Sequence record: OZ413487.1
DNA length: 64,000 bases
Strand: one strand, 5' to 3'
From: a phage
Shown here: positions 2,242-63,581 of the stretch, piece after piece
How positions within the stretch are numbered: position 1 is the stretch's first letter
Layout of the letters: each line of letters begins with the position of its first letter
Notes under the pieces: model-generated
What the model was told of the DNA's origin: nothing
The model's input: only the letters and a program-made list of their open reading frames with translations
Database searches by the model: none
Position numbers and translations under genes: made by a program

Positions 2242-2304
2242 TACTTGACAACAGTGATGGGGCCTAATATAATGGCCCTATCAAAACGAAAGGGGACCAC
2301 AGCA

Positions 2305-2565
2305 ATGACCAAACAATATCAACGAATTAAAGCCAAGGTTAAGCCAGACTATCTGGAGAAAGACTCTGCTTTTCGGGACTGCACAGCCGACAAAGTTTAC
2401 ACAGGGGCTGTCCTGTTGAACGATAAACTTGAAGTAGATGTGCTGGGTAAAGAGGCCGTTATCGAGGATGACAACGGTGACTGGGTTTTCTGCACCACAC
2501 GAGAGCTAGAAGTCTTAGAATATTTCGGTGAAATCTTCAACTCCTTAGACGACGAGGAAGCGTGA
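2305..2565 (+). CDS. hypothetical small protein (paralog family A)
   Basis: Track start 2245 is the -35 TTGACA of a consensus promoter; real ATG 2305 after AGGGGA SD; paralog of 1987..2241. Confidence 0.6.
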   Translation: MTKQYQRIKAKVKPDYLEKDSAFRDCTADKVYTGAVLLNDKLEVDVLGKEAVIEDDNGDWVFCTTRELEVLEYFGEIFNSLDDEEA

Positions 2566-2954
2566 TGAAAAATATTTGGGATATCGATATCTTTGAAGCC
2601 TCTAAGCTTGACGGTGCTGATGGAGTGATTATGGTGTCTGATGGCAAGGCAACACTAACTTCCGGAGATATCATCTATGCCTTGGACGAGCTGGCGCTTC
2701 TGAAATCTACCGGTAACACTTTGGAGGAGCGTCTTCAAGGATTCGCTTTCAAAGAAGGTACAAATACAGCCATGATGTGCACCACACGGACAGTTCAGGT
2801 TGGTAACGGTGTCTATATGATTATTGCTGTGTGTCCTAAATTCAGCAACGTCAACAAAGATGATGCTGACGCGGTCAACGATGTGGTTGTTCTCTTCGTG
2901 GGTGACGCTATGGCAGATCTGATGAATGCAGGAGAAGCAGCAAATGAAGACTGA
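2565..2954 (+). CDS. hypothetical protein
   Basis: 130 aa; ATG overlaps upstream TGA; GAGGAAG SD. Confidence 0.55.
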   Translation: MKNIWDIDIFEASKLDGADGVIMVSDGKATLTSGDIIYALDELALLKSTGNTLEERLQGFAFKEGTNTAMMCTTRTVQVGNGVYMIIAVCPKFSNVNKDDADAVNDVVVLFVGDAMADLMNAGEAANED

Positions 2955-3246
2955 AAACATCACCCCAGCAGGGTTCTTAAAAGTATACCGTGAACTGCTA
3001 TATACTACAGAGGACAGTGTTCTAGAGTATCCAGAATATCTTTTGCTGTATAAGTATCTGCAGGAGGCTGGTGAAAATCTGCCAGTTAGTGCAGAAGGTG
3101 GTCCAAACTGGATATACAGCGCATGGAGAAAGGTTGACATTCTCCCAGACCCAGGTAAAGATATGGTAGTTTGGCAGCTTATCAACAACATCGGGATTCC
3201 AATCTTTGATGAAGCTGTTAAAATCTATTTTGAACTTGACGATTAA
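2944..3246 (+). CDS. hypothetical protein
   Basis: ATG 2944 after AGGAGA SD (track 2926, same frame). Confidence 0.5.
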   Translation: MKTENITPAGFLKVYRELLYTTEDSVLEYPEYLLLYKYLQEAGENLPVSAEGGPNWIYSAWRKVDILPDPGKDMVVWQLINNIGIPIFDEAVKIYFELDD

Positions 3247-3263
3247 TATCAGGAGACCTTAAG

Positions 3264-3509
3264 ATGACTGAAGCAGTTGCTCGCGCAGGACAGAAAGTAC
3301 GTTGTGTTGAAGTAGGTTTTGGTGGCAAAGGGTGTCAAAACTTGACTCAAGGTAAGGAATACGCTGTTATCTCTGGGGGTGGAGACGAAAGTATTGTGTT
3401 CGAGGGCCACATCCTGGATGCTGAAAACTTTGAAATCTTTGACGACGATGGGGACCCGATCACCTGCCTGCTGGACGGGAATTGGGGAACTTTCGAAGTG
3501 ATTGGCTAA
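3264..3509 (+). CDS. hypothetical protein
   Basis: 81 aa; CAGGAGA SD; Gly-rich acidic product. Confidence 0.55.
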   Translation: MTEAVARAGQKVRCVEVGFGGKGCQNLTQGKEYAVISGGGDESIVFEGHILDAENFEIFDDDGDPITCLLDGNWGTFEVIG

Positions 3510-3592
3510 CAAATACCTATTGTAATTTACAGAAGGGGATGCTAAAATAGTGTCTCCTTCTATGTTGTTCAAATAAAATCGGAGATTCCATA

Positions 3593-3958
3593 ATGGAACA
3601 AATGAACGATCAAGCGTCGGTTGCGATGAACGAGCAAGAACAACCTCAAGAATTTTTCTTAGGGTTAAGTAAAGATCAAGTGTCTCTTCTGCTAGTGCTT
3701 TCTTCTTTCATGGGAAGACTTCAGGAGCTTACACAACAGCCAGAGGCTGAACAATTATTCCAGGCTCTGCGTGAAGAAGAAAAATATCGTCGTTTGGACT
3801 ATGCCTTAGGTTGGGTAGCTCAACAACGAGATATGCTGATGGCCCTCTCTGGGACCACAAGTTTTGCAATGGGCCTGTTGGCTCAAGTTCAGGACAAATT
3901 AATTCAAGCAGGGTTTGCACACACGGCAAACACTAACGAAGAACAAGGAGATAAATAA
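3593..3958 (+). CDS. hypothetical protein
   Basis: 121 aa; GGAGA SD; Q/E-rich. Confidence 0.55.
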   Translation: MEQMNDQASVAMNEQEQPQEFFLGLSKDQVSLLLVLSSFMGRLQELTQQPEAEQLFQALREEEKYRRLDYALGWVAQQRDMLMALSGTTSFAMGLLAQVQDKLIQAGFAHTANTNEEQGDK

Positions 3959-5184
3959 TGAGCGTTATTCAACAATTCGCTAACCCGATGAATCCGCGTG
4001 AAACTGTTTTACTAGCTCACGGCATGATTAAACGTGTCAGCATCAAGCCTATCAAAGGTGCTGATCCTACAACAGGTATTAAAACCACTGTGTGGCAAGG
4101 TAAGAAAATTGAATCCAGCCACACCATCTCTTTACTGATTTCTGAACTGGATTCCTCTGATAACCTACTTCAAGGTGGTGAAGAAGTTTGGATCAGTATG
4201 GGCGATAAGCTGCTTAAACCAGGTCATCAAGACTCTGTCTCTGTTAAAATTGATGACAAGTGGGAAACCGTAACGCCAGGATGGATCGTAAATATCCCTT
4301 TGAAGGCAAACGAGCATAACGGTAAGACCTACTACAAAGGCTCACTGGCTAAGATGGTTAAGCTGGGTGCAGGAGAGGCTCCAGCAGCGACTCAGCAGCA
4401 AAAACAGCAACAAGGTGCACAATCACAAGGCCAGAAGCAGAAACCTCAGCAGAATGCCAATCAGGACGTTTTACGCATCTATGGTGATGTGACTCAGATT
4501 GTTGGCAACGTGGTTACTGTTAATGACCACAAGATTGGCGAAGGTGCTATGGTTGTCACTGATGAGCAGCTTAAAGACCTGGTGGTAGGTGGTCGTGTTG
4601 CAGCCATTGTTGACAAAGACACCGGAAACATTATCAGTGGCTTCAAGGCCTATCCTCCTAAGGCAGAGAACGGCACTCAAGGCTCTGGTGGCAAGCGTAA
4701 ATCCTCTTACGACCCTATCGGTGTGGAGACGGGACATAGCATCAATGCGTTGCAGATCATCCTGGATCGCGGGTTTAAGGTGGACGACCCACTAGGCGTG
4801 GCTAAAACACTGCACGTAGTCACCATTGAGCTTAAGAAAGAGTATGCTCAAGCCACCAACCGAACTGAAGATGAAGTAGGTGCCAGTGTCGGCAATGCGG
4901 TGTTGAACGCTTGTCGCCGTATTGACAAGAAAACGAAAGTTGATGATTTTGCAGCGGCAATTACTGCAGAAGCAAAAGATGTCTTGACTAATCTGGCTGA
5001 GCCGTTGTACGATTGGATCAAGAACGGTGCTGGGTCCACTGACCATCAAGAACCTCAAGCTGCCAAACAGGAAGCAGCTCCACAGCAAAACACTGTAGAC
5101 GCTCCTCCTGTAAATGACGAGGAAGATGACCCGATGGATCAGAATCCAGCACAGTATGAGTTCGATGACTCGATCCCTTTCTGA
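3958..5184 (+). CDS. single-stranded DNA-binding protein-like (SSB-type acidic C-terminal tail)
   Basis: 408 aa; AAGGAGA SD; C-terminus ...EFDDSIPF matches the canonical SSB tip (D-D-D-I-P-F); Q-rich linker; OB fold not verified. Confidence 0.5.
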   Translation: MSVIQQFANPMNPRETVLLAHGMIKRVSIKPIKGADPTTGIKTTVWQGKKIESSHTISLLISELDSSDNLLQGGEEVWISMGDKLLKPGHQDSVSVKIDDKWETVTPGWIVNIPLKANEHNGKTYYKGSLAKMVKLGAGEAPAATQQQKQQQGAQSQGQKQKPQQNANQDVLRIYGDVTQIVGNVVTVNDHKIGEGAMVVTDEQLKDLVVGGRVAAIVDKDTGNIISGFKAYPPKAENGTQGSGGKRKSSYDPIGVETGHSINALQIILDRGFKVDDPLGVAKTLHVVTIELKKEYAQATNRTEDEVGASVGNAVLNACRRIDKKTKVDDFAAAITAEAKDVLTNLAEPLYDWIKNGAGSTDHQEPQAAKQEAAPQQNTVDAPPVNDEEDDPMDQNPAQYEFDDSIPF

Positions 5185-6612: not shown

Positions 6613-7032
6613 ATGATCTATGAAATGCCAAAATTGATCCGTGACGATGCCCAAAACCACACCATTATTATGGGTAAACGCATGAATATCCTTTGCCGTA
6701 ACGATTTCTGTGGTGGAGAATACGTTGCAGACTACTTCGGTGAGAATGGTAAACACCCTGTTCAGTTCTTCCTTGACCATGAGGATAACATTATCTGGGA
6801 GTTTGAAACTGAAGATATCCGCAACCTCTTCATCTTCCTCGGTGTCAAGGTTAAGGCCAATTTCGCAGAAGGTGAGTGCGACGATTGTGGATTTTATGAG
6901 GTGACAGACTTTTATCTCCCGAGTGGCAAGAACCTTTACTATGAGAGTCACTTCGGAAACACCAACATGCCTCAAAGCTGGGAAGAATTTTTCAGTATCG
7001 TAGAAGAGGAGCTGGCATACCGTGATTATTGA
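6613..7032 (+). CDS. hypothetical protein
   Basis: 139 aa; CGGAGAA SD; directly upstream of and overlapping the macro-domain gene. Confidence 0.55.
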   Translation: MIYEMPKLIRDDAQNHTIIMGKRMNILCRNDFCGGEYVADYFGENGKHPVQFFLDHEDNIIWEFETEDIRNLFIFLGVKVKANFAEGECDDCGFYEVTDFYLPSGKNLYYESHFGNTNMPQSWEEFFSIVEEELAYRDY

Positions 7033-7480
7033 TACTGTAAAGGGAGATTTAATCTCCCTTTTTAAGAGCGGTGCTGGTCACCTGATCCACGGTTGTAACT
7101 GCTTCCACACAATGGGTAAAGGTATAGCAAAACAGATTGCCCGTGAGTTCCCTCAAGCATTGGCAGCCGACAAAGAGACGAGACACGGTTGCCTAAGTAA
7201 ACTGGGTGCGTTCTCCCGATGGGAGCACTTATCTCCGATAGGTATTGTCTACGGAATCAATCTGTATACTCAGTTCTACCCAGGGCCTAATGCTGAATAT
7301 TTCTCAATCCTGAAAGGCTTTGAGCTAGTCAATGAGGTATTCAAGGGATCGACTTTACCATTCTACATCCCTAAGATCGGGTGCGGCATAGGCGGTTTGA
7401 AGTGGGAGCACGTAGAGGACGTTATTAACCTCGCCACTTTTGATATAGATATTATCGTGGTGGAGTACAAAGAGTGTTGA
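7022..7480 (+). CDS. macro-domain protein (TARG1/OARD1/DarG-type ADP-ribose hydrolase-like)
   Basis: 152 aa; GTG start overlapping upstream stop; N-terminus GDL..(8)..AGHLIHGCNCFHTMGKGIA follows the TARG1-type pattern GDLF...LAHCIS.DC.MGAGIA. Confidence 0.65.
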   Translation: MIIDTVKGDLISLFKSGAGHLIHGCNCFHTMGKGIAKQIAREFPQALAADKETRHGCLSKLGAFSRWEHLSPIGIVYGINLYTQFYPGPNAEYFSILKGFELVNEVFKGSTLPFYIPKIGCGIGGLKWEHVEDVINLATFDIDIIVVEYKEC

Positions 7481-8787: not shown

Positions 8788-8977
8788 GCTTAAATCCGCA
8801 TGGAGCATTGCTGTGGGTGATGAGATCCGTATCCCCGGTGGGAAGACCATTATGAAGATATCTCGTATTGAGTACGAAGGTGACCGTGTATTCCACATCT
8901 TCGCAGAAGATGGTCGAGAAATTTATATACAGGCAGGTTCTCACATTTATATCCGTAAGAAAGGGGACGACAAATGA
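8780..8977 (+). CDS. hypothetical protein
   Basis: ATG 8780 after AAGGATGG SD (track 8771). Confidence 0.45.
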   Translation: MFKLKSAWSIAVGDEIRIPGGKTIMKISRIEYEGDRVFHIFAEDGREIYIQAGSHIYIRKKGDDK

Positions 8978-9303
8978 CAGAAATCATCATTTCAACTGCA
9001 GGGTATGTGTTCCTGACAATCATTGCACTGACTATTTTGGTGACAGTGTATGGGTTTGTTATCCTTCCTATCCTTGAGACATTTAGTTTGTGTCGGTGTT
9101 GGAGAAAAGCTTACGGTCCACAACCATGGAAGGACTGGCCCCACCTGGTGCGCTTAGCGTTCTCTTATGCTTACGATCACTCCAGTAGTGCATGCATAAC
9201 CGGATACCACGCCCACAACTGGAGCTGGGAAGGGTTGAGGAAATGGAATGTTACAAAGACCATACCTCTGCGCATGTACAAACCTAAAAACAAAGACAAC
9301 TGA
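8974..9303 (+). CDS. membrane protein (N-terminal TM helix)
   Basis: 109 aa; AAGGGGA SD; hydrophobic N-terminal segment. Confidence 0.5.
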   Translation: MTEIIISTAGYVFLTIIALTILVTVYGFVILPILETFSLCRCWRKAYGPQPWKDWPHLVRLAFSYAYDHSSSACITGYHAHNWSWEGLRKWNVTKTIPLRMYKPKNKDN

Positions 9304-9611
9304 TACTTGAAAATTCTTGGCATATCAAGTATAAGGGGGATTTCTAAAATGGATTTCCTCCTTTTGATATTTCACCGGGCCGGATATTTTAAAATTCTTA
9401 GAAAATCAGAAAATGGATCGAAAACTAAAATGGATTTTTCAGAGTAGGCGCGACAAGCTGAATAACTCATCCTATCGTTTGCACCATATTCCAGGCCACC
9501 ATTATAGATTTCCCACACATGCTAACCTCCCTCTACTAGAACTTCCTCCACTTACCCTTGACCTTCTATGGTAACAATCTAACCGCTATCTTGAAGTTGC
9601 TGTGCAGCTTT

Positions 9612-9760
9612 CCAGGTACTCGATCTACTTTTCATTTCAGGGCTTGGATTTTCTGAAAATTTTTCTCGATAAATTTCTCAGTACTCGATCTGTTTTTCGT
9701 TTTCTGAATCGGATTTTCTGGAAATCGTTCCGGCTCTCGACCTGAAATTTTTGGGGACGA
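9612..9760. repeat. degenerate tandem repeats (about 70-bp unit x2) in non-coding region
   Basis: gtactcgatct, ggattttctg and tttttcgttttc motifs recur in the same order; aaaatggattt recurs 4x across 9340-9790. Confidence 0.5.
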
Positions 9761-9941
9761 AATCGATTTTTCGTTTTCAGAAATGGATTTTTAAAATTTC
9801 TATATGGGAATATTTTATGGGATACTGTTTTATAGGAAATTGTTACGGAGGGTAATTAGCGTGCTAATTAAATTTATTAAATGCGAGGAGTTCTCATTTA
9901 GAATTTTGAATGATAATCATTCTCGTTTGCAGAATAACGGG

Positions 9942-9961
9942 CAGGCCCGGTGATTGTCTCC
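9942..9961. repeat. GC-rich 20-mer, left copy of an exact inverted repeat pair
   Basis: caggcccggtgattgtctcc; exact reverse complement at 17381-17400; degenerate direct copy near 10077-10100. Confidence 0.6.
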
Positions 9962-10319
9962 CGGCCCCTACTGCCCCGGCTTGTTATTATAGTATCACAC
10001 AGGACAAAGAAAGCAAGGATTTTTTGCATAAATTTTTAAATGATAATGATAACCGTTCTCATTTTATGCAGCGCCCATCCCCGGTGGTTGTCTCCCCCGT
10101 CACCGGTGCCTGCCGTCCTTTCGATAGGTATATCGTGCCACCTGGCGGGGCCGCTGTCAACACTTTTCAAAAAATTTTTCTAACCTGATGCGCTAACCGC
10201 TGCAACCTGGCGGGGTCAGCCTGGCAGGACCTAACTGACCGGGTAGGAGAGAATGAAGGCTTGTAAACCTGGTGGGCCTATGCTACAGGATAGGTAACAA
10301 TTGAAGAGGAGGTACAAAA

Positions 10320-10487
10320 ATGAAAGGTAATATGATCCCCCTAGAAAATGTAGCTATTAATGACGCTGAGGCTATCGCCCTGGTTGAAAAGGCTATGGCG
10401 GGAGCGTTGGAACATAAAGAAGAGTACGAAAAATGGTGGTTAACCTGGCGGGGGCGGCAGGTGGATTCTATCATAAAAATAATTTAA
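10320..10487 (+). CDS. hypothetical small protein
   Basis: 55-aa ORF below the track cutoff; ATG after GAGGAGG SD; translated by hand to TAA. Confidence 0.4.
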   Translation: MKGNMIPLENVAINDAEAIALVEKAMAGALEHKEEYEKWWLTWRGRQVDSIIKII

Positions 10488-16889: not shown

Positions 16890-17380
16890 GGCGTTACAAC
16901 GGCATACGGGGCGCTTAAAAAATTTTTAAAGAAGTACTTGCATCATTCCCGACAATATGGATAATAAGAGTTGTCGAGGGGGAGGCCCCCAATCGTTGAC
17001 CAGATAGATAGGAGTTAAAATCATGGCTATTGTTACCGCTGGCTATCTTCAAAGATGCGGAAGCAAAACAACGCCGGATCTCAATACATGAGATCATCAA
17101 CCTTAACGCTGGAGGCACACCATACCGCCCAGGACCTGGCCGTGAGATGGACAATACGCTAGCGATCCTGAAGATACGCCGTAAACGGTCCTCCCTTACT
17201 CTGGACTCATTACACACAATGCAGCCTCCGTTCCAGGTGACCGGGAAACGGATCGCCAGGTCCTGGACAAAGGCCAATGATCGGACCGTATAAATAAAAG
17301 TGTTTTGGTACTGATTTTGGGGTTGACTTGTTCGGCCCCTTTTGCTATTCTTATTAAACGGGCGGCACTTGGGAACAGGG

Positions 17381-17400
17381 GGAGACAATCACCGGGCCTG
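17381..17400. repeat. GC-rich 20-mer, right copy of the exact inverted repeat pair
   Basis: ggagacaatcaccgggcctg is the exact reverse complement of 9942-9961. Confidence 0.6.
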
Positions 17401-17510
17401 CCTGTCATATAAGAACTATAAAAACCGTTGACATCTGCCATGGGGTGGGGTAACATTTATCTTGAAGGGGCAAAAGTGCCCACACAACAACCAAGAGAGA
17501 GGAAAACACT

Positions 17511-17843: not shown

Positions 17844-18107
17844 ATGAAACGTCTTGATCAGCTCAAATTAGTTCAATATATGGCTTATCGTGTTCTTGAA
17901 GTCCAGAAAGGTAGCAAAAAAGAGGTTTGCGAGAAAGCTTATAAGATCTTCACTCGCAAAAAAGATGACTGGATGCTACGCCAGACTAAAAAGGCTGACA
18001 TCTTGGGGTACCTGGAAGAAGAGATCCGCCTTGAAGAGCAAGAAGAGATCCGCCGTAGTGAGGCAGATTATCAGGCAGCTTGGGAAAACTGGATGAGCAA
18101 CAAATAA
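17844..18107 (+). CDS. hypothetical protein
   Basis: 87 aa; AAGAGG SD; K/E-rich. Confidence 0.55.
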   Translation: MKRLDQLKLVQYMAYRVLEVQKGSKKEVCEKAYKIFTRKKDDWMLRQTKKADILGYLEEEIRLEEQEEIRRSEADYQAAWENWMSNK

Positions 18108-18126
18108 TACAACAAGGTGCACGGTC

Positions 18127-18151
18127 AGGGGCTTAAAGCCCCTTTCTTTTT
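18127..18151 (+). terminator. rho-independent terminator
   Basis: aggggc-ttaa-agcccct hairpin then TTCTTTTT. Confidence 0.65.
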
Positions 18152-19019
18152 GTCTCCTCTTTTCCTACCACAAATGGCCCCGCCTGGCAAATGGAATAAT
18201 CAACAAGCCAGCAATTAACCCCACTGTACAAACATACATATAAAATAACTATTGCATAATTTTTCATTGTGTGGTAGCAGTGCCATTTTTACACGTTTTT
18301 CCTTCCAAAATTGCACGTAATGCAGCATTTGCACAAAATTTAACCTGATGCATATCTTCAATAGCTTGTCAACAACTAAAAATCTTTATAAGTCATACAC
18401 TTACATAACTACAAAAACGTTTTCTACGTGAAAAATCGAGTATAACTATAGCCGCCAGATCTCAGAATTTACGTACGCTCGCCATTCTATAGCCTGCTAA
18501 GCATTTATTCCAACCATAGAATAACGGAATAGTCAATACCTGCATAAAATAATTATTCGTGTAAACTGCATAACATAAATCGGCCCAGGTGTCAACATTT
18601 TTCGTAAACAGTCTGGAATTGTCACGTTAGGTTACCATAAGCAGAGAAATCTTTAGTCGTCTAATGTTTACTGTACATTACTATACTGACTGGAATCATT
18701 AGATGACTAAGAGAAAGATAAGAAATAATTAATAATGTAATTATTTTACCTGTAACAATAAGGCAACTATGCAAACGAATGGCATGGCGCGACGGAGTCG
18801 CGACATAATATAAAAGCAGTAACCATCACCCCCGTGATAGTTTGTCTGCAAACTATTAATCAGATCATAGTTGCCTTGTATTTAGTTAATCATGACATGA
18901 CAAGCAAGGCAACTATAGATCTGCTAATAGTTGCCCTGCTTTTATATTATGTCATGCTAATTATAATCAGTGCGATTATTGTCATGTATAATTATTGTCA
19001 TGCAAACGAATGGCATGGC

Positions 19020-19160
19020 TGATTATCGGTGTGTAAACAGTCAATCATGTAAATGGTTAGCATGTGAACAATCAGGAATGTAAACAATCCAGTGTGTAAA
19101 CTAATAGGTGTGTAAAAGTGTCATGTTGTGTCAGTTAGGTCACATTATGTCAGACAAGTT
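19020..19160. repeat. iteron-like array of (g)tgtaaac(a) motifs
   Basis: At least six tgtaaaca/tgtgaaca/gtgtaaaa variants within about 140 bp, flanked by 18-bp direct repeats gcaaacgaatggcatggc at 18771 and 19002. Confidence 0.5.
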
Positions 19161-19395
19161 TTTCTCCTCTTTGTCAAGTGCTGCATGAAAAATTTACAAG
19201 CTTGTATGGTAGCATTTTTGCGGCCCTGTTTACATTCAGTAATGTATGTATAATCCTTGTTGTGTGGGCGTTTAGACGTCTAGACGGTTGGAAGTCCACA
19301 GGTCAATATCTAATCTATCGGCTGCTAACTATATCCCACACAAATAGTAAGAAATATGATTGTTATATGCGTAAACTGTAACTCATGTTATCAAT

Positions 19396-19765
19396 CCCTG
19401 TATGGATCGCCAGTGGTGCGCATAATAGGTATTATGTTAAATTGCCCGTAATGATAACAGTTCTCACAATGATAGGTATTCTCATTCATCCACACAAAAT
19501 AGGTTGCAAATGTTGTGCCACTGTGTGAACGGCCTGGCCTATTAATTTCTCTCACTGCCTCGATATTTGAGAATTGTTATCCCTGTATGGATCGCCAGTG
19601 GTGCGCATAATAGGTATTATGTTAAATTGCCCGTAATGATAACAGTTCTCACAATGATAGGTATTCTCATTCATCCACACAAAATAGGTTGCAAATGTTG
19701 TGCCACTGTGTGAACGGCCTGGCCTATTAATTTCTCTCACTGCCTCGATATTTGAGAATTGTTAT
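19396..19765. repeat. perfect tandem duplication, 2 x 185 bp
   Basis: Unit ccctgtatgg...gagaattgttat at 19396-19580 repeats identically at 19581-19765. Confidence 0.85.
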
Positions 19766-20823
19766 AAGAATGAGAAGTATTCCCATTCCGTCCGCCTGGC
19801 AGCACTCCTGTAGGTCCTGCAAGGACTCTAGCTGAAAGCTAGACCCTTCGGGCCTCCCTGTAGGTCAGGTCAAAATCGTGGTAGAATTGGGCCTGTTCAG
19901 ATATTTCTGGCTGACTCTTCAGGTCTGTGTGGGAAAAGCCAACCTCTCCGGCGGGGCAGGGGGTCATGACGGGAAAATTGCAGGTCAATTAAAAAATTTA
20001 CGTGGTGTATGAAGCGCTCTTCAGGTAAGGCATGTATTATGGGATGAAACCCTCTTCAGGCAATGATATTTGTGGGTGTGATATTTGCTGGAAAGCCAGA
20101 TATGACGGGACTCCCGGCGGGGATGGGGTAGTACAGACAGGGAAAATATGAGAATGTAGTTGGGGAAATTGATCAGACAGGTAGAGTATGGAATATGTTA
20201 CAAGTATGTTAAATATGGAGGTTGAATATCTGTAGGATTTGTGTGTAAAATCAAAGACTTAAGGGGTGTTGTGGTATTTTCTATAAATAATTCAAGTTTA
20301 ATAGGCAATATTTGTCTCTATCCGCTTTGTGTGGTAAACAGATTCAGATTAGATTGGTTTACAAGTGTATACATAATATACAAATTAAAGATACAAGAAA
20401 CCCCCCTCCCCCTTCGGCTACCATTCACCTTTTCCTCTGACTGGTACTTAAACACTTATTCAGACTCTTCAGGTTATCACCCATATATCATATGGCAGTG
20501 ACTGGTGTCCTCCGGCCCCTCTTTCGTCACCCGTCCGCTTCGCCATGCTAATGCCATAGCCAATGGTTCGGTTGTTCACTCTGTTCACTCAGGTGTATCT
20601 CCATACCCCTTCAAACCGAAGAGAACAGAAAACCCGAATTACTCGGTAAAAGAAAAGAGAAGAACTTAATTTTATCAGGATAGGCAAGAATGTCAAGGCA
20701 TGACTGCTCACTAAACAAGCAAACAGTCATGTGTGGAAGGTAAGTGATTGTGGTGGTGGGAAATTTAGTTGAAAGATGTGTTATAGGTGCTCCCAGCACT
20801 TTAGCCGGGTAGCTAATTGTGTG

Positions 20824-21039
20824 TCAGTCCAGTGGTTCATCACCTACTTCACTGAAATCAATGTTCATGGTCTCCTCCCAACCATCAATCTCAGCACCAG
20901 AGTAGAGATCTTTAGGACTTACTCCCAAAGCATCAGCAACAGAGTCCATATTTAACACCTCTGGCAGGTATGATTCATCGAATTCAAGGTAAATCAGGCC
21001 ACGAGTGTTGTCAGCTCCACCAAATATTTCTATCTTCAT
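20824..21039 (-). CDS. hypothetical acidic protein
   Basis: Start trimmed to ATG 21039 after GAGGAG SD (track 21105). Confidence 0.5.
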   Translation of the reverse strand: MKIEIFGGADNTRGLIYLEFDESYLPEVLNMDSVADALGVSPKDLYSGAEIDGWEETMNIDFSEVGDEPLD

Positions 21040-21159
21040 GAAATCTCCTCTGGGAATGAGAGTGTGAACAGGGTTTATACGTTCCAATGCGCTGGAATTA
21101 TGCACGTTTGCCTCTTCAGGCCATGCTTCAGCATGAGGAACCTGTGTGGGCTCGGTGCT

Positions 21160-21372
21160 TCATAGTCTACCACCCCTGAACTCTTCGTGCTCAGGCATAA
21201 TAGAGAACCAGATATCTACGATGTCTTCCCACGTCAGGTCATCAGCCTCAGGATCTACCTGGAGCGAAGATGAAGAATCTTCAGAATCGAAGTTTTCCTC
21301 TTGCACTGGCTCAGTCAAGGGACATATAGTCACTCCTTTGGATGTCTCTTCAGATGCATGTGTGTTTATCAT
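21160..21372 (-). CDS. hypothetical acidic protein
   Basis: 70 aa; start overlaps the stop of an upstream micro-ORF (ATGA). Confidence 0.4.
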   Translation of the reverse strand: MINTHASEETSKGVTICPLTEPVQEENFDSEDSSSSLQVDPEADDLTWEDIVDIWFSIMPEHEEFRGGRL

Positions 21373-21458
21373 GTTCCACCCGTGAGTATTCCGGCAACAG
21401 CTGCTATGGACGTAATGATCATCAGGATCACCACTAAAACTTCGGACAATGTTCTCAT
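21369..21458 (-). CDS. 29-aa hydrophobic peptide
   Basis: Below track cutoff; GGAG SD 9 nt upstream; coupled to 21160..21372. Confidence 0.3.
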   Translation of the reverse strand: MRTLSEVLVVILMIITSIAAVAGILTGGT

Positions 21459-21732
21459 TGTGTACTCCATATTCTACAAACTATGTGTGGATACTATCAC
21501 TGGATCGGTAATGTGTCAACAGAAACGCCGCGAGGGTTTGGTTAAAATCCGAGCGTATGGTGATTTGGGTCAAAACGGACGTGCGTTCTCGCTACGCTCG
21601 AAATATGGAGTTGTTTGTAGGGAGCTCTTAAACGCTCTGTAATGAAATTAACTACCCAAGGTATGCAATCGTGCACCAGACAAAGAAAAGGACGCCACAG
21701 AGCGTCCTAGGTGTCTTAAATTTGATATTTTG

Positions 21733-62767: not shown

Positions 62768-62842
62768 GCCCTGTTAGCTTAGTGGATAAAGCAGCGGCCT
62801 TCTAAGCCGTTGACACTGGTTCGAGTCCAGTACGGGGTGCCA
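62768..62842 (+). tRNA. tRNA-Arg (anticodon TCT)
   Basis: Cloverleaf folded by hand: 7-bp acceptor (two G-U), loop CTTCTAA, T-loop TTCGAGT, encoded CCA. Confidence 0.7.
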
Positions 62843-62846
62843 AATT

Positions 62847-62933
62847 GGGGAGTTATCCCGTAGAGGTAGCGGTGTAGACTGTAAATCTATTGTCATTGCG
62901 ACTCGGGTGGTTCGACTCCACCACTCCCCACCA
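62847..62933 (+). tRNA. tRNA-Tyr (anticodon GTA), type II
   Basis: Acceptor ggggagt/actcccc, anticodon loop CTGTAAA, long variable arm, T-loop TTCGACT, CCA. Confidence 0.7.
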
Positions 62934-63047
62934 AATTTATATTTTTAGATGCATAAATAATACAGATAATGGCATTGATATTTATCGTCGTTTATACTAG
63001 TCACTAACTGCTCGAAAATCAGTGTCATTATCAGTATAATTTATAAA

Positions 63048-63138
63048 GGAGGGTAGGGAGCAATGGTGCTCAAGCGGTCTTGAAAACCGTCCCGTTGAGG
63101 ATGACTCGATGATGGTTCGATTCCATTACTCTCCGCCA
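63048..63138 (+). tRNA. tRNA-Ser (anticodon TGA), type II
   Basis: Acceptor ggagggt/actctcc, anticodon loop CTTGAAA, long variable arm, T-loop TTCGATT, CCA. Confidence 0.7.
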
Positions 63139-63236
63139 CATTGTTGACCTTGTAATTAAGCGAAAGCCGGAAGCAGAACCGGATTATCAAATGTTACAGT
63201 CGTCATCGCCGACTAGCAACATGGTCAACATGCTGA

Positions 63237-63335
63237 GCTAGGTAAGCCCTTTGGCAAGGGCGAGGATTTTTAATCCTGAAAATAGACGAGGTAGTCGTTG
63301 AATACATAGGTGGTTCGATTCCATCACCTAGCACC
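63237..63335 (+). tRNA. atypical tRNA-like element (possible tRNA-Lys TTT with long insertion, or pseudo-tRNA)
   Basis: Perfect 7-bp acceptor gctaggt/acctagc, good D-arm and T-arm (TTCGATT), but weak anticodon stem and about 30-nt insert before T-arm; no complete CCA. Confidence 0.3.
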
Positions 63336-63340
63336 TTTTT

Positions 63341-63416
63341 GCTGATGTAGCACAATCGGTAGTGCAATTGATTTGTAATCAATAGGTTGTAGGTTCAAAT
63401 CCTGCCATCAGCACCA
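63341..63416 (+). tRNA. tRNA-Thr (anticodon TGT)
   Basis: Acceptor gctgatg/catcagc, anticodon stem attga/tcaat, loop TTTGTAA, T-loop TTCAAAT, CCA. Confidence 0.8.
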
Positions 63417-63417
63417 A

Positions 63418-63492
63418 GGCCCTGTAGCTGGAAGGTTCAAGCAAGCGACTCATAATCGCCAGACGGTGGTTCAATTCCACCCAGGGCCACCA
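63418..63492 (+). tRNA. tRNA-Met (anticodon CAT; Met vs Ile2 not distinguishable)
   Basis: Acceptor ggccctg/cagggcc, loop CTCATAA, T-loop TTCAATT, CCA. Confidence 0.75.
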
Positions 63493-63503
63493 AATAGTAA
63501 ATA

Positions 63504-63581
63504 CTCCGCGTAGCTCAGCTTGGTAGAGCGCCTGATTTGGGATCAGGAGGTCGAGTGTTCGAATCACTTCGTGGAGACCAC
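63504..63581 (+). tRNA. tRNA-Pro (anticodon TGG)
   Basis: Acceptor ctccgcg/cgtggag, D-stem gctc/gagc, anticodon stem cctga/tcagg, loop TTTGGGA, T-loop TTCGAAT, CCA. Confidence 0.75.

Follow-up and report, generated by a model that had tools for sequence, protein, structure and literature searches.

In a 64,000-nucleotide window of phage DNA (sequence record OZ413487.1; one strand, 5' to 3'), we analyzed the 1016-bp interval 9304-10319, which lies between two open reading frames (ORFs), 8974..9303 (+) and 10320..10487 (+), the latter with the ribosome-binding site GAGGAGG. We found that this interval is a non-coding, selectively maintained multipartite element, whose parts resemble protein-binding sites and promoters. 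A megablast search with 9250-10350 retrieved 122 phage records; 114 of them span 80% or more of the query, Escherichia Vequintavirus accounts for nearly all, and the closest, EdH4, is 98.4% identical. By these matches the source phage is a Vequintavirus, an rV5-like myovirus, a group with genomes of ~137 kb. The interval occurs at one place per record in most of the matching records, and we found no description of the element in the literature.

The original prediction called the interval a 1-kb non-coding spacer and considered ORF 9910-10188, which it contains, to be spurious. We searched for a conserved translated ORF across the interval in an alignment of eight Vequintavirus genomes (~83-98% identity) and found none; each tested ORF of at least 32 amino acids had lost its start, was frameshifted or was interrupted in at least two of the eight relatives, and substitutions showed no codon-position bias. 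ORF 9910-10188 (92 amino acids) is intact in three relatives and frameshifted or interrupted in the other five, and its substitutions are spread over the codon positions as 8/6/10. Thus, since every tested ORF is broken in some relatives, an objection based on a conserved ORF fails, and both the non-coding status of the spacer and the spurious nature of this ORF are borne out. Existing annotation points the other way, such that EdH4, FV3, FFH2 and other GenBank records carry hypothetical proteins across the interval, and ORF 9910-10185 matches phrog_14993 at 5e-65. We read this match and these protein calls as repeated annotation of near-identical DNA. That the interval encodes small proteins, as these records have it, is hardly credible given the broken ORFs, the even distribution over codon positions and the observation that indels between genera are not multiples of three.

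Conservation in the interval is concentrated in defined segments. Among the eight relatives, the number of variable sites per 50 nt is 8-11 in the flanking genes, 19-32 in 9450-9650, 2 in each of 9650-9699 and 9750-9799, and 2-4 in 9900-10150, while 10200-10300 has suffered deletions of 21-48 nt in relatives. Segment 9650-10150 is therefore less variable than the genes beside the interval. The core is under stronger purifying selection than the neighboring genes, and no other non-coding DNA in the part of the genome examined is as well conserved as this region. Moreover, a core of ~90 nt (9906-9990) is conserved across the genera of Vequintavirinae and in Phapecoctavirus, which belongs to a different subfamily from Vequintavirus. 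With sensitive blastn, only 9864-10025 was recognizable (70-88% identity) in Certrevirus, Mydovirus, Seunavirus, Henunavirus and Phapecoctavirus; in all of these genera the element sits within a gap of 0.5-1.4 kb without convincing genes. Its parts keep the same order in most of the lineages compared, in two subfamilies, despite changing flanking genes, which in different genera encode an NADAR protein, an HNH-like protein or others without assigned function. Pattern scans for the core identified 15 loci in IMG/VR, 13 loci in metagenomes and one contig of a metagenome-assembled genome among GTDB genomes; all of the loci that were extracted and aligned have this core, and those contigs whose length allows a judgment are of phage size (~137-151 kb). 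In contrast, a sensitive blastn search of E. coli genomes with 9870-10190 gave no match, and thus the element was not captured from the host.

Palindromes of one family and a conserved box mark the core and its surroundings. Two to four copies of a 7-1-7 palindrome (consensus TGAGAATnATTCTCA) lie just before the core, and sites with one mismatch to the 7-1-7 motif are found at the same place in other genera. In the window, operator box I (9882..9896, no strand) is a degenerate palindrome, TGCGAGGAGTTCTCA, that aligns with the TGAGAAnnATTCTnA palindromes of other genera. Operator box II (9906..9935, +) is of Fur-box type: its sequence, TTGAATGATAATCATTCTC, agrees over 9906-9924 at 15 of 19 positions with the Fur consensus GATAATGATAATCATTATC, and together with an invariant GAAT it forms a block that is near-invariant across genera. 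Conserved box A (9940..9962, +; GGCAGGCCCGGTGATTGTCTCCC) comes next, with the family pattern GCA-N5-GGTG-W-TT or GCA-N5-GGTG-W-TTGTCTCC. A second operator and box, cassette B (10036-10097), is specific to Vequintavirus. Its operator (10036..10066, +), conserved in Vequintavirus, consists of overlapping Fur-box-type sites, the best of which is GATAATGATAACCGTTCTC at 10042 (10042-10060; 16/19), and its conserved box B (10078..10097, +; CCCCGGTGGTTGTCTCCCCC) is a direct copy of box A 134 bp downstream. Thus both tandem cassettes have a Fur-box-type palindrome immediately upstream of a GGTG(A/G)TTGTCTCC box, and the two direct copies of ccggtg(a/g)ttgtctccc in the original prediction were correctly seen (9946-9962 and 10080-10096; 94% identical). 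The sites at 10042 and 9906 have the two best scores to the Fur consensus in the 64 kb, which contains four Fur-type sites of at least 15/19 compared to 0.25 expected (13/19 being the lowest score listed).

The same motifs recur toward the genome end, which can be placed in the window. According to published work, the ends of Vequintavirus virions are fixed and bear terminal repeats of 458-459 bp, and we confirmed a 459-bp direct terminal repeat in the EdH4 record. Position 1 of EdH4 maps to ~19796 of the window and its right end to 19153; thus the window spans the genome-end junction, with one copy of the direct terminal repeat (19153..19796, no strand; 459 bp in EdH4). Within this copy is an internal 186-bp tandem duplication (19394-19579 and 19580-19765) that is absent from most relatives. 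Mapped through EdH4, our interval lies 9.3-10.5 kb inside the inferred left physical end, ~7-8% of 136 kb, at the inner edge of a ~10-kb left-end block of early genes, with small early-type genes on both sides. In EdH4, which has 2.2 kb extra, the same region is 11.2-12.3 kb from the left end; EdH4 2275-4481 (~2.2 kb) is replaced by ~300 bp at 17043-17340 of the window, and thus the length of the terminal early block is variable (9.5 versus 11.2 kb). In Hena1, with annotated terminal repeats of 519 bp, the element is 11.0 kb from the end and oriented toward it, and the layout in ESCO13 is the same, with the element oriented toward the nearby end; KPP-1 (Vequintavirinae) has a terminal repeat of 514 bp. 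The Certrevirus phages CB7 and phiTE, reported to be circularly permuted on the basis of BAL-31 digestion and read depth, still carry the element.

An exact inverted copy of the 23 nt of box A, none being expected by chance, is present at 17380..17402 (-), 7.4 kb from the interval and ~2.2-2.4 kb from the inferred genome end, with an A/T-rich, -10-like patch after it on the minus strand. This copy is also present in EdH4, and we did not find it in the terminal blocks of the other genera examined. The terminal repeat itself contains seven Fur-type palindromes (19447-19785), one of them within the spacer of a promoter-like TTGCCC-N17-CACAAT, and 7-1-7 palindromes likewise occur in the terminal repeats of EdH4 and Hena1 and in the first 1.5 kb of the ESCO13 record. 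The recurrence of these palindromes in the terminal repeat, at a distance of 9.5 kb, would place the two edges of the terminal block under a single regulator. Furthermore, in two loci that group with Mydovirus Seu621 in the core alignment (L011 1090-7442 and L016 2179-8106), a TGAGAGTnATTCTCA palindrome is found at several intergenic sites of the terminal block, one of which lies ~25 nt upstream of a TTGCAT-CCTGGCGGCG...TATCCT promoter. The recurrence of this palindrome at intergenic sites suggests a small regulon.

Upstream of the core is a phased array of three units (9606..9810, +) that start at 9606, 9671 and 9745, with spacings of 65 and 74 bp and 70-74% identity among units. The repeats had been described as two degenerate 70-bp units; the repeats are real, but there are three units rather than two, and Tandem Repeats Finder missed them. 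The parts of a unit are a CTCGA(T/C)C box (9619, 9684 and 9736), a T5C tract, GGATTTTCTG and an A/T junction (GAAAATTTTT), and the array includes GATC sites and dyads. The unit core CTCGAYCTNNTTTTCRTTT has two exact copies in the array and none elsewhere in the window at fewer than three mismatches; allowing up to three mismatches, there are 6 matches compared to 0.6 expected. A palindrome at 9747-9784 lies within the array (folding z = -2.35), as does TCGATAAATT (9666-9675), which equals the high-affinity H-NS site and serves as a lead rather than a test. In most genera of Vequintavirinae, three units of 65-76 bp precede the core, and every unit combines a CTCGATC(G) box and a T5C tract with a short dyad (either AAAATCGAG or ACGAAATCGATTTTTCGT) and a junction of A6T6 type. 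The CTCGATC boxes are ~288, 212 and 145 nt upstream of the operator in most genera, and 290, 225 and 173 nt in the window. Hena1-like phages keep this layout with a variant box, CTCGAAA or CTTGAG, and Phapecoctavirus has different repeats at the position of the array.

We identified three promoter-like sequences in and around the cassettes. Candidate promoter P1 (+; TTGAAT-N18-CAGAAT, 8/12) overlaps box II (9906..9935), and its status as a promoter is doubtful because the -11 A is not conserved (CTGAAT in Mydovirus Seu621 and CGGAAT in phiTE). The second, P2, is a predicted extended -10 promoter (9982..9990, +; TGtTATTAT), 57 bp downstream of the cassette A palindrome, with a predicted start at ~9997 directed toward the genome end; a TGT and an A/T-rich, -10-like hexamer occur at the same alignment position in every lineage. 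On the opposite strand is a predicted sigma-70-type promoter, P_rev (10132..10160, -), with TTGACA at 10160-10155, a 17-nt GC-rich spacer and CACGAT at 10137-10132. From its predicted start, ~10125, transcripts would run back across both cassettes and on to the array, reached ~220 nt downstream of the promoter. Although the -10 of P_rev is weakened in the window (CACGAT versus CACAAT in relatives), the promoter is a family trait: TTGACA (or TTGACG or TTGCAA), a GC-rich spacer of 17-18 nt and a good -10 are found 252-278 nt from the operator in all sequences but the outlying L032, and 66% of the sequences score at least 10/12 compared to 1.6% of shuffles. The hexamers are conserved between spacers that have diverged.

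Beyond P_rev, an A/T junction, TTTTCAAAAAATTTTTCT (10164..10181, no strand), varies in length among relatives, and a variable proximal segment (10186..10319, +) leads to the next gene. This segment has ACCTGG(C/T)GGG at 10205 and 10267 and a weak promoter, TTGTAA-N17-TACAGG (10261-10289). ACCTGG(C/T)GGG occurs as well at 10140, inside P_rev, and at 10443, in the next gene; there are 12 matches in the window compared to 4.1 expected, and all four exact ones are between 10140 and 10452. The ACCTGGCGGGG motif coincides in part with the P_rev spacer, and further copies precede the next gene.

In genera other than Vequintavirus, the core is followed by a near-invariant stretch, CTACCGGCGATCCACCTTCC ... 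ACGTTAGCCCCGCC-TTTTCGCC-GTGGGGTGGCGT (+ strand; columns 139-213 of our alignment A4; L003 1660-1740, L005, L008 and others). A hairpin downstream of P2 in these genera is paired in 97.6% of cells, and its exchanges (C-G/U-G and G-U/A-U) are neutral on the + strand only, which argues that the + strand is transcribed there. We consider this hairpin a candidate non-coding RNA, with no match in Rfam. Other structures did not survive inspection. The GC-rich flanks of box A can pair, and an RNA hairpin there seemed by eye to covary; we rejected it because 24 sequences gave no consistent register and its energy was no better than that of shuffled sequence (z = -0.6); a CCGGTG/CACCGG hairpin in cassette B was rejected because its pairs are broken by changes in navn and phita32. 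Sigma-54 promoters at the TGGC(G/A) motifs have, by eye, the wrong spacing, and a relationship with the pseudo-ToxI of phiTE (the phiTE escape locus, with 36-nt ToxI-like repeats) was dropped because the homologous phiTE gap (L003) shares no 8-mer with ToxI. Rfam 15, applied with E-value thresholds to the interval and five related loci and with gathering thresholds to the whole window, gave nothing relevant; the best hit in the interval had 22 bits against a gathering score of 126. Among the titles and abstracts listed by a literature search, none reports a Vequintavirinae transcriptome.

The distal part of the interval is of a different nature. It opens, directly after the stop of ORF 8974..9303, with a hairpin (9303..9332, +), whose 8-bp stem, noted in the original prediction, is present (9303-9310 pairs with 9325-9332, around a 14-nt loop). 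At -8.9 kcal/mol (z = -1.5) its stability does not exceed that of shuffled sequence, and neither FV3 nor YN3 maintains the stem. This hairpin is probably not a terminator: the stem is A/U-rich, no U-tract follows but AAGGGGGAUUUCU, and a terminator scan made no call. Next to it is a cluster of repeats (9341..9445, +) with AAAATGGATTT at 9346 and 9427, GAAAATGGATCG at 9408 and GATATTT boxes; an 81-bp-spaced direct repeat joins 9302-9327 with 9383-9408. Of the four copies of aaaatggattt that had been claimed, those at 9346 and 9427 are exact, and the other two, at 9780 (+) and 9760 (-), each carry a single mismatch. Four of the eight one-mismatch matches to AAAATGGATTT in the 64 kb fall in this 1 kb, and ~3.2 are expected for the whole window. 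The stretch 9345-9445 is nearly invariant among the eight Vequintavirus genomes, and GATATTTG repeats recur upstream in other genera. A variable spacer (9446..9610, no strand), C-rich on the + strand, with 20-32 variable sites per 50 nt and a GC skew of -0.3, separates this cluster from the array. GC content is 0.33-0.37 across 9600-9899 (0.33 at 9700-9899) and 0.54 at 10100-10299, and there is no skew change at the interval.

From this arrangement, we consider the chances about even that this conserved non-coding stretch is a nucleoprotein and transcription control hub, gated by operators and with convergent promoters. A dimeric repressor would bind the 7-1-7 palindromes upstream of the GGTG(A/G)TTGTCTCC boxes and gate transcription toward the genome end; most simply this would be the host iron regulator Fur, or alternatively a phage protein of the same specificity. 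P_rev would fire back through the cassettes and collide with P2, yielding overlapping sense and antisense RNAs of ~130 nt, and the three-unit array, with its dyad boxes and A/T junctions, would bind a protein, either architectural or encoded by the phage, that sets how active the hub is. The original prediction had proposed a regulatory or boundary element between two early transcription units. The regulatory half agrees with a conserved, non-coding interval with regulatory-type motifs between two small early-gene blocks, but no boundary role is supported; strong sigma-70-type promoters are present on both sides of the interval, which speaks against a boundary between two different kinds of transcription unit or between temporal gene classes.

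Fur-repressed promoters of Enterobacterales, with their 19-bp consensus GATAATGATAATCATTATC and 7-1-7 motif TGATAATnATTATCA, resemble the element in several respects: the matches of 15/19 and 16/19, the one-mismatch 7-1-7 sites in relatives, the two to four adjacent boxes beside promoter elements, and hosts that in all element-carrying phages have Fur. Arrays of adjacent Fur boxes are also a feature of the aerobactin promoter. The sites here differ in that they lie in a virulent phage rather than in a host, and no homologous sequence exists in E. coli; a single full-text literature search for such sites yielded no report of them in virulent phages.

Several observations weigh against the control hub. 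Positions 4 and 12 of the family consensus, TGAGAAT..ATTCTCA, are preferentially G/C, whereas the Fur preference there is T/A, which makes a phage-encoded repressor at least as good a candidate as Fur. The main palindrome overlaps P1, whose -10 is poor and not universally conserved, and P2 has no -35 hexamer. The covarying hairpin belongs to other genera and not to Vequintavirus, in which cassette B occupies that position; the stability of hairpins in the window is within that of shuffled sequence (z = -0.6 to -1.75), and across genera no consistent register emerges for the pairing around box A. Moreover, a phased array of three units is more typical of replication origins than of promoters.

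Indeed, a replication origin is a genuine, if minority, possibility. In this case the array would be iterons for a phage initiator, next to an easily melted A/T stretch, the adjacent promoters, above all P_rev with its transcript running into the array, would activate or prime initiation, and the sense/antisense RNA pair would control firing as ColE1 RNA I and RNA II do. The three regular, dyad-containing repeats, the GATC sites, the A/T junctions and the low GC of 9600-9899 (0.33-0.37) fit such a role, and lineage-specific repeats beside a universal promoter/operator core are the pattern expected if iterons co-evolve with their initiator. We also count in its favor that units 1 and 2 start with GATCTnTTTTTC, which agrees with the oriC 13-mer GATCTnTTnTTTT at 9 of its 11 fixed positions. 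At least three regular direct repeats beside an A/T-rich region, as in iteron origins, are present here, and the interval shares with these origins (lambda ori, P1 oriR, plasmids) internal dyads, curved A/T tracts, GATC sites and adjacent promoters; however, it has three repeats only, 65-75 bp apart rather than ~20 bp, no DnaA boxes (TTWTNCACA) within 9304-10319, and no adjoining initiator-like gene, the neighbors varying by genus. The T7 primary origin, at 15% of the genome, consists of tandem promoters and an AT-rich region, and T4 origins consist of a promoter and an unwinding element. Our interval likewise has predicted promoters beside a meltable A/T stretch and lies just inside the early block at the inferred leading end, but it has an iteron-like array and operator palindromes, which T7 and T4 origins do not, and its predicted promoters are of the host-RNA-polymerase type. 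The replisome is of T7 type according to the rV5 paper, which describes a T7-type primase-helicase and a family A polymerase, and the skew analysis by which an origin was sought in rV5 gave none; the genome map of that paper carries a grey box marked 'non-coding' at some place along the genome. The skew shifts of rV5 follow transcription direction only and, as noted, the site shows no skew change. Evidence from ICP1, which has related replication proteins, falls on both sides, since an ORF-free 1.3-kb region of its genome holds a pac site and a putative rolling-circle origin, whereas its theta origin is mid-genome. With respect to ColE1, predicted forward and reverse promoters ~130 nt apart would give overlapping complementary RNAs, as RNA I and RNA II are; neither sequence nor Rfam similarity connects the two systems, a stem-loop triplet was not found here, and the RNAs here are predicted. 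The same convergent promoters would suit a scheme in which the main product is a small non-coding RNA, alone or as a sense/antisense pair, with host or phage targets in trans, and the remainder of the interval is its promoter region; we consider this scheme rather unlikely. The + strand hairpin with wobble-preserving changes in other genera favors it, and GGTGWTTGTCTCC contains UGUCUCC, which could pair with a Shine-Dalgarno-like GGAGACA. In contrast, there is no Rfam match and no canonical U-run terminator, folding is not better than shuffled, the sequence downstream of P2 in Vequintavirus differs from that of other genera, and the conserved three-unit array 150-300 nt upstream would be left unexplained.

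The original prediction also drew an analogy with injection arrest, and we considered whether the element could be a T5-like stop to DNA entry, such that the left end would enter first, halt at ~7-8% through a host protein bound to the repeats or palindromes, have its terminal early genes expressed, and then be followed by the rest. The T5 injection-stop region (iss, Repeat Region 3) is a 1.2-kb untranslated repeat region at 7.9% of the genome, better conserved than its ORFs, with host-factor boxes (paired DnaA boxes) and an inverted partner nearer the end. The likeness is extensive: both regions are ~1-1.2 kb, untranslated and 7-8% from a physical end, where they border a block of small early genes on its inner side, and both are better conserved than the ORFs around them and combine direct and inverted repeats, palindromes, sites of host-protein type and a partner repeat nearer the end. 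The fixed ends of Vequintavirus with their 458-459-bp repeats, the distance of 9.3-10.5 kb from the left end (11.2-12.3 kb in EdH4 and 11.0 kb, in the same orientation, in Hena1), the palindrome clusters at both edges of the block with the 23-nt inverted copy 7.4 kb away, and, as a circumstantial link, shared daunorubicin sensitivity are all in line with such a stop. The distance to the end, however, would be held constant by conserved gene order alone. Furthermore, the interval has no DnaA boxes (the 11 matches in the window, compared to 8.9 expected, are all elsewhere), its boxes being of Fur type, and the two regions have no sequence similarity. The terminal repeat here is 0.46 kb and the region is single-copy, whereas the T5 region lies inside a terminal repeat of ~10 kb; CB7 and phiTE, reported as circularly permuted, carry the element nonetheless. 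T5 is a siphovirus in which two-step transfer with proteins A1 and A2 is proven, while two-step transfer has never been reported for these myoviruses. We thus retain from the analogy the position at 7-8% from a fixed end and the form, and not the DnaA boxes or the 10-kb terminal repeat, and we regard an entry stop of this kind as very unlikely. A specific version, in which Fur bound to the palindrome clusters in the terminal repeat and the region would hold the DNA while the left 7-8% enters first and expresses ~25-30 small takeover genes, would be a second, independently evolved injection-stop signal with Fur boxes instead of DnaA boxes; it is a long shot, and Fur is not membrane-bound.

The neighboring genes offered no further guide. 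The eight genes adjoining the region that we scanned have no recognizable domain, including no Rep-like domain, and no dedicated search was made for homology to T5 A1/A2; we gave up reading a function from the neighbors because none has an assigned function and none is conserved between genera. Just inside the region, the EdH4 equivalent of gene 7022-7480 (+) is annotated as similar to a macro domain protein.

We also note several features elsewhere in the window. A ~3.5-kb ORF-poor zone (18100-21700) marks the place where the + strand genes (1-18.1 kb) meet the - strand genes (21.7-60 kb); it has short repeats, TGTAAAC six times at 19030-19115 and GCAAACGAATGGCATGGC at 18770 and 19003, and may hold packaging signals. 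A group I catalytic intron is found at 140-375 (+; Rfam RF00028, 64.7 bits against a gathering score of 50), and the rV5 paper describes introns in the large terminase gene. Within a cluster at 62768-63580 is a tRNA-like gene (63237-63335, +) for which a four-base anticodon, atcc, was called with no identity (Rfam, 35.5 bits). In the database searches, 16-18 GenBank records named 'Campylobacter phage' (MG0656xx), which carry no annotation, were 92-99% identical to E. coli Vequintavirus in this region, and their host attribution looks doubtful.

The consequences depend upon which reading of the element holds. Should the interval prove to be an origin, this group would gain its first defined one, with uses in engineering; should it prove to be an entry checkpoint, T5 would lose its place as the sole example of two-step transfer. 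The region provides precise experimental handles, namely three repeat units, two operator cassettes and two facing promoters, in rV5-like and phAPEC8-like phages that are widely isolated and are used in typing and therapy. If the palindromes do bind Fur, these virulent phages would have an iron-sensing switch, of which the single full-text search found no report in such phages.

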